From: Octopus vulgaris
Taxonomy: Eukaryota
Assembly (NCBI GenBank): GCA_951406725.2
Contig: OX597820.1
Coordinates: 99,200,001-99,264,000, forward strand
DNA length: 64,000 nt
Direction of reading: 5' to 3'
The notes beneath the pieces were generated by a model. That model searched no databases. It was not told where the DNA came from and saw only the letters and a list, made by a program, of their open reading frames with translations. This document shows, piece by piece, positions 7,720 to 61,135 of this stretch. How positions within the stretch are numbered: position 1 is the stretch's first letter; each line of letters starts with the position of its first letter. Made by a program: the position numbers and the translations under genes.

Positions 7720-8077
7720 TATTCTTTTACTTGTTTCAGTCATTTTGACCGTTCATGCTGGAGCACTGCCGTTAGTCGGGCAAATTGACCCCACGACTTA
7801 TTCCGTGTAAGCCTAGCACTTATTCTATCGGTCTCTTTTGCCAAACCACTAAGTTATGGGTATGTAAACACACCAGCATCAGTTGTCAAGCAATGTTGCA
7901 GGGGTGGGGGATCACAAACACACACACACACATGCATATATTCGACTGGCTTCTTTCAGTCAACCAAATCCACCCACAAGGCTTTGGTCAGCCCAAGGCT
8001 ATAGTAGAAGACACTTGCCCAAGGTTCCACACAGTGGGACTGAACCCGGAACCATGTGGTTGGTAAGCAAGCTACTT
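7720..8077 (-). mobile_element. tRNA-derived CORE-type SINE (family A), interrupted; the head resumes at 10374-10410
   Basis: Same sequence as the other family A copies, split by the TSD-bounded insertion. Confidence 0.85.
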
Positions 8078-10373
8078 TTATTCACATAGTTTGCCACAAG
8101 GGCAGTACTCAGAGTAGCTGCGGGCTGGACAAAGACATTAATGTGATGAGGATGATAATGACGAAAAGGAATAAAAATGGGAGGGGCACCGGCGCCCGCC
8201 GACTGATAACCCCTCGCAAACACTGTTCAATTTAAAATTCAATAATAAAAATTAAAACAAAAATTCATTTTTCATTAATCTTCCTTGTCTGGGCCCCCAA
8301 TTAAGTTTCCTGCCGCCTGCAGGAAAGCCTGCATTGGCAGGCCTGGACACAGGGACACAAAATCCTCATTATTGCAGGCCCTCCTGACCTCAATCAATTC
8401 TTTCTGGGTAACAACCTCCGCAGCCACCTGCGAGGCCAACATGGACCGTCTATACAGACCGAGTCATATCATCTCGGTCTAGAAGACTGTCCAAGTACAT
8501 CTCAACAGGCCCTCCCCTGAGGTAGAAAATGAAAAGTTCCACCTCTTTCTCATGAGGAGGGGCCTCAACCTGCTCTGTCAGTGGCACCATCTCCACTGAC
8601 TGAGCCTCTCGCTTCGGTGGCACATTTCCCACCAGAGGAGCTTCGGGTTTGGTCGGCGGCTCAGTGCCATCTGCTGACTGTCTCCCATTTCTCTTTTTCT
8701 CCTTTTTCTTTTTGCGGTTGTGGGAGTCGAGGCCTCCGTCGGCACACCTGGGAGGTTCTCCTCCTCTCCCACAACCTGCACTTCTCCTGGTGAGCAACCA
8801 CCGTTGCTCACCTTTCTCTTCCTTTTCTCCTTGCAATGGGAGAGTGGAGGGCACCTCCACCTTTCCCTGCTCCAGGACCTTACCATGGCCCCAGGGGCAG
8901 TCCTTCTTAATGTGGCCTGACTTCAGGCACGAGTGACACTTGTGGCGGGGGGCAACCCTCAAGTATCACTGGATACCTTGAGCCAGCCATTTTCAAAAAG
9001 TCAGGGAAAGTCATTTCACCCATGGCCTCTGGGGTCCATAGGATCAAAGTCGCCTTTGCACCCTCCCAGTTGACTGCAGGCTTTATCTCTACATTTAAGA
9101 GCCGAGGCCTGCTATCCCTCAGGCCCTGCCGGATAGCATCTGCAATCTACCTTGCTTCAGTGCCTGGGGGCAGACCACTTACCCAGGCCCTTATCACCTT
9201 CTTTCCACAATATGTGGGAAGAAACAAAATCTCCTCCCCTTCTAGTGGCTGGCCTGCCACAGTGCAAGCCTCCTCAGGGGTATCAGAAAGCAGCCACACC
9301 GTGGCGTATTTGACACCTCTGGTTACATAATAATTTTTGGCTGGCAAACATTTTGCCAGCTCTTTATCAATAATACCCTTGTCGAAGAGTACGATGGCGT
9401 CATGCGACCTAGAATAGGTCCGTAGTACCACTGTCCTTCTCTCGATGTCTCCAAGCCACTGCTTGGGTGGGACAATCTCCCACTCCCAAGCAGTGGTCTT
9501 ATTTTTTATCATTTTATCTGCCATGTCAATAACACAGTTCAAAAAAAGAAAAAAAGTCACTCAACCAAAAACAACAAAAAAATCTTTGAACACAATAAAA
9601 TAAAAACATAGTTCAACTAAAATTGGACGCCTGGCCCTCGTGCCGGTGGCACATAAAAAGCACCATCCGTTTGTGGCCGTTTGCCAGCTCTGTCTGGCAC
9701 CTGTGCGGGTGGCACGTAAAAAGCACCCACTACACTCTCGGAGTGGTTGGCGTTAGGAAGGGCATCCAGCCGTAGAAACACTGCCAGATTTGACTGGGCC
9801 TGATGAAGCCTTCTGGCTTCACAGACCCCAGTAGAACCGTCCAACCCATGCTAGCATGGAAAACGGACGCTAAACGATGATGAAAATACTAGTCCAGCTA
9901 AATTGTTCAGCAAAAGGAAAGATAAGACAGTAGTTCAGAAAACTAAATAAATATTATACAATTCTCCACGGCAGGAAATACAATTTTCGGGCTACACGGT
10001 ACTACCAGCCCACTTACAGCCTTCAAATCTCTTGGTAATCCTCCTGGTAAAGCACTTCCAACAGTTCCGGGTTCAAAACCACGCATAGCTTGCAGGCACC
10101 AATTTTTCAAAATAATTGCTGTGTAAAATTCACTTTGAATTTCTTTACTTGCTTGTTAGCAAGCACAACCACAACACTGCCAAGAGTAAGCAAAAATGCC
10201 CCCAGAGCTGGGCAGAATATATTGTAATAAAAATAAGACACACAATAATTCTACCCAGCTCAGAAAAAACAAAATCACTTACCCTGATGGTGACCCTTTG
10301 TTCAAAGAGGGAGCTATACAGCTACACATCTTACCTTGTTCAATTGAAGCAACCAAATACCAACAAATACTTA
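8078..10373 (-). mobile_element. non-autonomous ORF1-only (gag-like) non-LTR retroelement inserted into a SINE
   Basis: 15-bp TSD GTAAGCAAGCTACTT at 8063-8077 and 10374-10388 splits a SINE that resumes exactly afterwards. The 3' end is a stem-loop followed by AATAAA. No RT or endonuclease is visible. Confidence 0.8.
8275..9524 (-). pseudogene. LINE ORF1-like zinc-knuckle protein (L1/Tx1-like), disrupted
   Basis: Starts MADKMIKNK...; in-frame stop at 9147 plus frameshifts; CCHC knuckle CHSCLKSGHIKKDC (~8897-8938); basic RKKKKEKKR tract; ends ...GGPDKED* at 8275. Confidence 0.75.
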
Positions 10374-10563
10374 GTAAGCAAGCTACTTACCACACAGCCA
10401 CTCTTGTGCCTATATTTATATATTATATATATTATTATACATATATTATAGATATATTTATATAATATAATTATATATATTTACATATATTTATATCATC
10501 ATCATCATCATCATATATATTTATTTATATAATGTAATTATAGATATATTTATCTAATATAAT

Positions 10564-59514: not shown

Positions 59515-59990
59515 GCAGAGCTGGCAGAAACGTTAGCACGCTGGGCGAAGTGCGTAGCGGTATTTCGTCTGTCGTTACATTCTGAGTTCAAATTCCGCCA
59601 AGGTCAACTTTGCCTTTCATCCTTTCGGGGTCGATAAATTAAGTACCTATTTCTTTATTACCCACAGGGGGCTAAACACAGAGGGGGCAAACAAGGACAG
59701 ACATAGGTATTAAGTCGATTACATAGACCCCAGTGCGTAACTGGTACTTAATTTATCGACCCCGAAAGGATGAAAGGCAAAGTCGACCTTGGTGGAATTT
59801 GAACTCACAACGTAACGCAGACGAAATACCGCTAAGCATTTCGCCCGGTGTGCTAACGTTTCTGCCAGCTCGCCGTCTTTAATAAATTAAGTACCAGTTA
59901 CGCACTGGGGTCGATATAATTGACTTAATCCGTTTGTCTGTCCTTGTTTGTCCCCTCTGTGTGTAGCCCCTTGCAGGCAGTAAAGAAATA
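59515..59990. mobile_element. family C SINE (-, 59648-59881) nested inverted within a family C SINE (+)
   Basis: 14-bp TSD ATAAATTAAGTACC at 59634-59647 and 59882-59895. Confidence 0.88.
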
Positions 59991-61135
59991 AGAAACTGAA
60001 AGAAGTTTATCGTATGTGTGTTACTGTCTCCTTGCCTGTGACATTGCATGATAGTTGTAAAGGAGTGTCAGTGTCATGCAAGTGGTGTCTTGTTTCCAAT
60101 TTTCTGTGAAATATTGTATGGTCATGGGGAAATATTACCTAACTTGAAAACTGGCAAGGGTTGGTGACAGGAATGGCATCTGGCCATAGAAAATCTCAAC
60201 AAATTCTGACCCATGCAGGCATGTAAAAGTGGACGTTAAAACAATAATGATAATATATATATATCCAAATGATGGCTTAAGTGGCTGAAATTTCAAAGTC
60301 ATTTTCAACACTATTCTTGTCAGTGACTAAGTTATCAAGTAATTAATATCTTATTATCAGTATACTTTTGTCCTTAAGCATCATGATCACACTGTAATTT
60401 CATCTCAGGCTTTCAGTTCAGTTCCTGCTTAGCTTTGCCTATCATGTTACTAGGGGTTGCTGAAATAATGACTATGGTTAAAATAACCAACAGTAATTCT
60501 CTCTACAAAGATTAACCTTGGACATTATTGTTTTTTATGCCTACTTTTCTGTGCTGGGATTGGTTGAACAGAATTTTTGCTGACTGTTATATGGCTGGAT
60601 ACCCTTCTAGACGCCAATCTAAAAATCTGTATAAACACAGATTACACTGTGTAACACGATTTTTGTCCTTGGGGGTAGCAGCTGTTATTCCTTATTTGTG
60701 TATTCCTAGAAAGTATGAAAAATGGCTGTTTCCTTCAAACTTTACTTTTGTTATATTTATTCAAACCCCCAAAGAATCCCTCTCAACACATGGTTATGAT
60801 ATTCCCCCATTACTCCTGCTCATGATCAGAGATGCACATATTGTCAGCCACTTAGGGACATGCTCAAGTGGTTAAGGCGAAGCAACTGACAAGCAAATCT
60901 CTGGTACTGAGCAGATTATTTGCTGTAACAATATATCTGCTTCAGCAACTTAGCACTGAATCTGTCTGAAATGTAATGGAAAATAGATCGGTTTCAAATC
61001 ATTTATGTCCAGGTCACAAAAGCAAAGTTTGAAGGGAATTGTAGCCATTTCCTTTGATTTCTAGATAGAAGCAAAAAGGAAATAACATTTACTGACCAAA
61101 GTAAAAAATAGATTTAAATTTTGTCACACAGTGTT

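Follow-up and report, generated by a model that had tools for sequence, protein, structure and literature searches.

Non-autonomous LINEs that encode ORF1 alone have been reported for the L1, Jockey and CR1 clades, with HAL1, HeT-A and Ag-Sponge as the examples described in the accessible portions of two accounts (PMC5786205, PMC5753468). Within the Tx1 clade, LINEs that target other transposons include Tx1 in Tx1D, the crocodilian Tx1-Mar with its SINEU passengers, and Tx1-8_Crp, Tx1-4_AMi and Tx1-9_AMi; the Tx1 targets named in the available part of that survey are DNA transposons, LTR elements, snRNA and 5S genes, satellites and microsatellites rather than the head of a SINE, and the passengers it covers are non-coding (PMC4494074). 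For SART1Bm and R1Bm, a short RNA in or after the 3' UTR has been proposed to pair with the target, the contact being made with the bottom (primer) strand where priming begins, in the text accessible for that work (PMC7265360). A 2026 study of Octopus vulgaris repeats reports 13 recently active L1-Tx1 families, and a term search of the available portion of its text returned no occurrence of 'target', 'nested', 'HAL1' or 'non-autonomous' (PMC13282606).

The locus examined here lies in a 64-kb stretch of O. vulgaris DNA (the window), where a 2,296-nt insert at 8078-10373 (minus strand, nested repeat included) splits a minus-strand SINE. It is very probably a decayed copy of an old, selected, ORF1-only family that is fixed at one base of the SINE head and was likely copied by an L1/Tx1-like two-ORF LINE using the same site. 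A previous reading made from the sequence alone had called the insert HAL1-like. In the strict sense, HAL1 is a mammalian L1 derivative with an L1-type ORF1 and a poly(A) end, and the octopus family is not a HAL1 by that measure, since no L1 ORF1p occurs among the 41 PDB matches to its ORF1 profile, a CCHC knuckle is present and there is no poly(A). What stands of the earlier description is membership of the ORF1-only class, with HAL1 as an analogue from a different lineage. The family shares with HAL1, HeT-A and Ag-Sponge, as covered by the accessible text, the presence of ORF1 only, the non-autonomous state, a retained LINE 3' end and multiple origins, and it differs from them in the combination of an invertebrate host, a predicted tandem RRM plus CCHC protein, the lack of poly(A) and a single SINE target (PMC5786205, PMC5753468). 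Its LINE is like the Tx1 elements in being APE-type, in using a site inside a mobile element and in having passengers directed to the same target, whereas the target is here a SINE head and the passengers encode ORF1 (PMC4494074, available part). ORF1-only LINEs and transposon-targeting Tx1 elements are thus each known, and we have not found their combination described; the literature consulted holds no SINE-head-specific ORF1-only family in cephalopods, and repeat libraries, supplements or subscription papers may list one. With this family, the few ORF1-only LINEs on record gain a site-specific invertebrate member, and the usual LINE-SINE relation is reversed in that the SINE serves as the landing pad.

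The sequence-only reading had pictured a SINE cut by a 15-mer duplicated 2.3 kb apart, a leader of ~600 nt with a hairpin, one disrupted ORF of ~415 codons with a CX2CX4HX4C knuckle, and a tail of ~200 nt with a stem-loop and AATAAA, all of which we recovered. On the minus strand, the SINE head (10374-10410) ends in the 5' copy of the 15-bp target duplication, a near-palindromic site at 10374-10388, and the SINE resumes at 8077 with the 3' copy (8063-8077), followed by the SINE body (7788-8062), which extends at least to 7788 and matches one of the window's intact SINE copies at 81% identity. The same SINE head is uninterrupted in 14 copies across the 64 kb. The host SINE bears some resemblance to A and B boxes and a CORE segment and may be a tRNA-derived/CORE SINE. 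ARAGORN found 0 genes in the window, and the 4 weak Rfam matches include no tRNA family. The part of PMC4758252 that was available gives no identification of this SINE.

The 5' leader (9525-10373, minus strand) measures about 590 nt without the nested repeat and is common, over most of its length, to at least 13 other loci. It contains a strong hairpin at 10200-10265 (minus strand; -30.4 kcal/mol, z -6.1) that is found in 5 sister copies. The nested, unrelated repeat of ~260 nt (about 9627-9882, plus strand), which has many copies in the window, is a later insertion, since two sister copies (L135 and L137) are without it. The broken ORF1 (8275-9524, minus strand) runs for about 415 codons from an ATG at 9524 to a stop at 8275-8277 and comprises a predicted tandem RRM, a CCHC knuckle, a basic/acidic linker and a conserved C-terminal part; codon 126 is an in-frame stop, and comparison with a natural intact copy reveals frame-breaking indels near 8954, 8824, 8696, 8472 and 8432. 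The CX2CX4HX4C zinc knuckle lies at about 8897-8938 (minus strand) and matches Pfam zf-CCHC with an E-value of 0.004, below the curated cut-off. The 3' tail of 197 nt (8078-8274, minus strand) includes a motif (8113-8121, minus strand) that is the complement of the landing site's first bases and a short terminal hairpin in common with the LINE tail (8092-8104, minus strand), after which AATAAA forms the extreme end of the element and poly(A) is absent. The 3' fold is weaker (z -1.95) than the leader hairpin.

The earlier reading had expected a multi-copy family whose members carry different TSDs. The first half of this prediction holds, in that the ORF1-to-tail arrangement recurs in many copies of the same structure. 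The second half fails, as nearly all copies share one TSD, a consequence of the family's specificity for one position in the SINE head, which the earlier reading had missed. Copies with visible ends occupy the same base of the SINE head. A tail-only pattern gave 52 matches in the genome, and among the first 30 of these the SINE body follows directly in 24/30, where chance would give about 0.3% per locus, and the duplication is present within 3 mismatches in 22/30; the former count exceeds the figure of more than 20% of flanks used to define target preference in the accessible text of Kojima (PMC4494074). Two of the remaining loci (L109 and L113) inserted off target and have TSDs of their own that start with AGTA, one (L107) continues in later SINE-like sequence as judged by eye, and three (L108, L111 and L112) are tail-only copies without the SINE body next to them and without an explanation. 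Exact empty sites number 36,073 in the genome.

At 2/30 junction loci the C-terminus of an ORF2 lay upstream, and these led to full-length LINEs of 5.4-6.1 kb at the same site, encoding APE, RT and zf-RVT domains; an autonomous LINE with a shared tail had been proposed as the thing to look for. Two ORFs, an N-terminal APE, an RT and a C-terminal zinc motif are the structural marks of the Tx1 clade; the best solved relative is human L1 ORF2p (E 1e-66, versus 1e-20 for R2), and among the 120 homologues listed no name includes Tx1. Searches for LINE copies used one query that included the target sequence and another without it, and 7 young copies proved 97.8-99.0% identical, with both ORFs open in one. 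Because they occupy the same site and their tails resemble that of the window element over the last ~35-45 nt, these LINEs, which we regard as L1/Tx1-like, are the likely partner of the ORF1-only family. The ORF1 of the window lineage is only 24-35% identical to that of the LINEs found, and no direct parent of the lineage appears among the LINEs sampled in the genome; the mobiliser active for the window lineage at the time may now be extinct. The young LINE copies (L202-L213 and L220) favour a minor SINE variant, with TAAC at 8/12 3' junctions versus 10/62 empty sites among the fetched loci, and their 5' end starts with target-like bases.

As we envisage the cycle, the element's own ORF1 protein would coat its RNA, and the partner ORF2, acting in trans, would recognise the shared terminal hairpin, nick the near-palindromic SINE site on its bottom strand and prime cDNA at the nick. 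The duplication would rebuild the site, allowing later elements to stack head to tail. In the least certain step, a tail motif of 7-10 nt would pair with the top strand of the DNA or with a read-through RNA copy and thereby bias the choice of SINE variant, top-strand pairing possibly resting on a strand swap with the read-through RNA.

That last step draws on the tails themselves. In 129 distinct tails, 87 contain an exact match of at least 7 nt to the complement of the target, with about 1.7 expected from shuffles, and the motif lies about 50 nt from the end in the passengers and 85 nt in the LINEs. The motif changes with the target. A junction pattern for a second SINE variant gave 212 matches, and at the first 30 of these, AGAAG-type SINEs, AGCTTC is present in 18/30 tails and AGCTAC in 1, whereas at 30 loci in AGTAG-type SINEs AGCTTC is present in 0 and AGCTAC in 21/30. 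Neither tail architecture is without the base switch. When target type is mapped onto an ORF1 tree of 58 rows, 6 changes are needed and strong branches force at least 3 of these, a count that tail swapping between lineages could inflate; among the rows with both labels, which as related copies are not independent, 34 are concordant and 0 discordant. A tail motif that switches with the SINE variant suggests pairing between RNA and target. Because the motif reads like the primer strand, such pairing is possible only with the top strand or with read-through RNA; in SART1Bm and R1Bm, as far as the available text describes them, the RNA is proposed to contact the bottom strand where priming begins, whereas the octopus motif is internal (PMC7265360).

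Against this stands the reading that the partner endonuclease alone sets the target, with the motif either forming an RNA hairpin with read-through target or marking the LINE subfamily used, and we hold the chances of this to be evenly balanced. It gains from elements (L158, L194, L238 and L247) that use the site without the motif, which show that pairing is not required, from off-target TSDs that share only the first 4-5 bases, from one tail (L021) that in computed structures folds with read-through target into a hairpin, and from the statement, in the accessible part of Kojima 2015 (PMC4494074), that target choice is mainly set by the endonuclease. It accounts less well for the fact that, across two tail architectures and several ORF1 lineages, a single complementary base changes along with the target, and the window tail is not folded onto read-through target in the computed structure. 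The dispute touches only the last step of our preferred explanation, that of an ORF1-only family fixed in the SINE head and likely copied by the two-ORF LINE. True RNA-guided target choice is, on this evidence, a tentative proposal that we think somewhat improbable, and we are similarly doubtful of a full three-level parasite system in octopus, in which an APE-type LINE and its long-lived ORF1-only passengers would both be guided by a short motif in their RNA tail and a one-base change would retarget an element to another SINE subfamily. The natural compensatory change between tail and target offers a ready test of RNA-target pairing in site choice by an APE-type retrotransposon, with relevance to targeted gene insertion tools.

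The ORF1-only nature of the family was assessed by searching the 2.8 Gb genome with an ORF1-plus-tail query, for which 40 of 2,283 candidates were scored and at least 45 matches obtained; exact tail-plus-target junctions number 141, with 0 in the control. The 120 loci fetched, some of them duplicates, include an ORF1 match in 92/120 and ORF2 fragments in 8/120, the latter being upstream neighbours, LINE tails or unrelated old LINE pieces, and no ORF2 lies inside any ORF1-to-tail span of the 92 ORF1-bearing loci. The sister copies therefore lack the ORF2 between ORF1 and tail that, on the earlier reading, would have made the insert a one-off deletion. The distance from the end of ORF1 to the 3' TSD has a median of 248 nt and a range of 109-812 (n=43 rows, some duplicates). 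Independent, TSD-bounded copies with ORF1 only, and an ORF1 and 3' end related to those of an autonomous LINE, are what characterises an ORF1-present non-autonomous LINE. No sampled copy is more than 88.9% identical to the one in the window, and among the sampled copies the closest pairs reach about 94%, save one neighbouring pair at 97.6%; the window lineage looks old, in a sample drawn by likeness to the window copy. One apparent LINE with a window-type ORF1 (L136) proved to be an interrupted copy with a piece of an old and unrelated LINE (33% identical) after it. Four ORF1-only copies (L013, L017, L021 and L028) start with the 5' terminal sequences of LINE subfamilies, which suggests exchange of 5' ends.

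In one copy (L006) the ORF1 frame is still open, over 425 codons. For the first 215 residues of this copy, an alignment-based model of moderate confidence (pLDDT 68) predicts two RRM domains ahead of the CCHC knuckle, and the top Foldseek matches of the model are tandem-RRM proteins (best Z 7.7, none at or above 8). A single-sequence fold of ORF1 was unusable (pLDDT 36.9), and a Pfam search gave no family for the intact ORF1. The sole protein match to the intact copy is from Octopus sinensis, and the relatives found with the ORF1 profile carry names from Octopus and Argonauta. Across 59 copies, with variants counted against the majority codon, CpG sites included, and called shared when present in at least 4 copies, codons 5-205 have a pN/pS of 0.31 for shared versus 1.29 for private variants (Fisher p 3e-18, a value that overstates independence given kinship among the copies); the C-terminal part gives 0.54 versus 1.05, and the linker (0.86 versus 0.94) no contrast. 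Since shared pN/pS falls well below private, ORF1 evolved under purifying selection in the copies that kept replicating, the outcome of a selection check that had been proposed for this ORF. Purifying selection maintained through deep diversification makes it testable why a passenger keeps its own ORF1. Contigs from four sequencing runs, three of which (B, C and D) are labelled as other organisms, cover the ORF1 stretch in short pieces, none spanning it, and provide no evidence on expression.

A tree of 89 ORF1 pieces, obtained by a quick, unfinished search, places the window ORF1 in a long-stemmed clade of 46 rows, of which 27 are ORF1-only, 19 are not classed and 0 are labelled as LINEs. A second ORF1-only lineage (L207 and L220) nests among the LINE ORF1s, apart from the window clade, indicating that ORF1-only elements arose at least twice. 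Its ~1.5-kb element (L207:7177-8412, minus strand, also in L220) has an open frame of 412 codons in L207; it sits at the same site and is without the tail motif. The possibility that no replicating ORF1-only lineage exists, and that the copies are repeated one-off LINE deletions or host-gene retrocopies, can draw on internally deleted LINE copies that do occur (L082, L102 and L182). We consider it very unlikely given a clade devoid of LINEs, shared variants under purifying selection and a nearly constant ORF1-to-tail spacing, and the homology between this ORF1 and that of the genome's two-ORF LINEs also answers the suspicion of a host-gene retrocopy that the earlier reading had raised. The deleted LINEs that keep ORF1 along with pieces of ORF2 (L082, L102, L182, L066 and L101) are possible intermediates to new passengers.

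Copies truncated at the 5' end to 33-112 nt retain the SINE head and the duplication (L046, L050 and L129), many different 5' ends meet the same base, and head-to-tail stacks occur at the site (L167, L168, L169 and L207), from which we conclude that the copies derive from independent TPRT insertions and not from movement of a composite. When the two duplicates are compared in 44 junction pairs, mismatches number 2-7 at positions 1-7 and climb to 8-15 at positions 8-14; some are subfamily-specific, and a few of the 44 rows represent off-register or unrelated junctions. The element 5' ends would accordingly seem to carry target-like bases, and part of the apparent 15-bp duplication may be microhomology brought by the 5' end, because several subfamilies share a 5' variant missing from their 3' copy. 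That shared variant, together with the identical flanks of every copy, is what could favour a SINE-plus-insert unit amplified after a single insertion, a reading we hold to be very improbable, since intact SINE heads adjoin 5'-truncated copies of widely varying length, members of one subfamily are flanked by different SINE variants, LINE and ORF1-only lineages that are unrelated share one insertion base, and there are tandem stacks as well as off-target copies. In two very short truncated copies (L129 and L225), too few to test, the junction with the target falls exactly on the tail motif, which would be expected were copying to stall or anneal at that point.

Distant LINEs that are not at the SINE site (L214-L218) are L1/Tx1-like relatives, some with an open ORF2, which are arranged in tandem and have targets of their own, a TC microsatellite among them. 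The window also has another short repeat that is abundant, at 59935-60000 (plus strand) and in three minus-strand copies; about 25 nt of its 3' end are shared with the LINE tail (L208), and it resembles the tails of L214-L218, a likeness that suggests mobilisation of this repeat by these LINEs.
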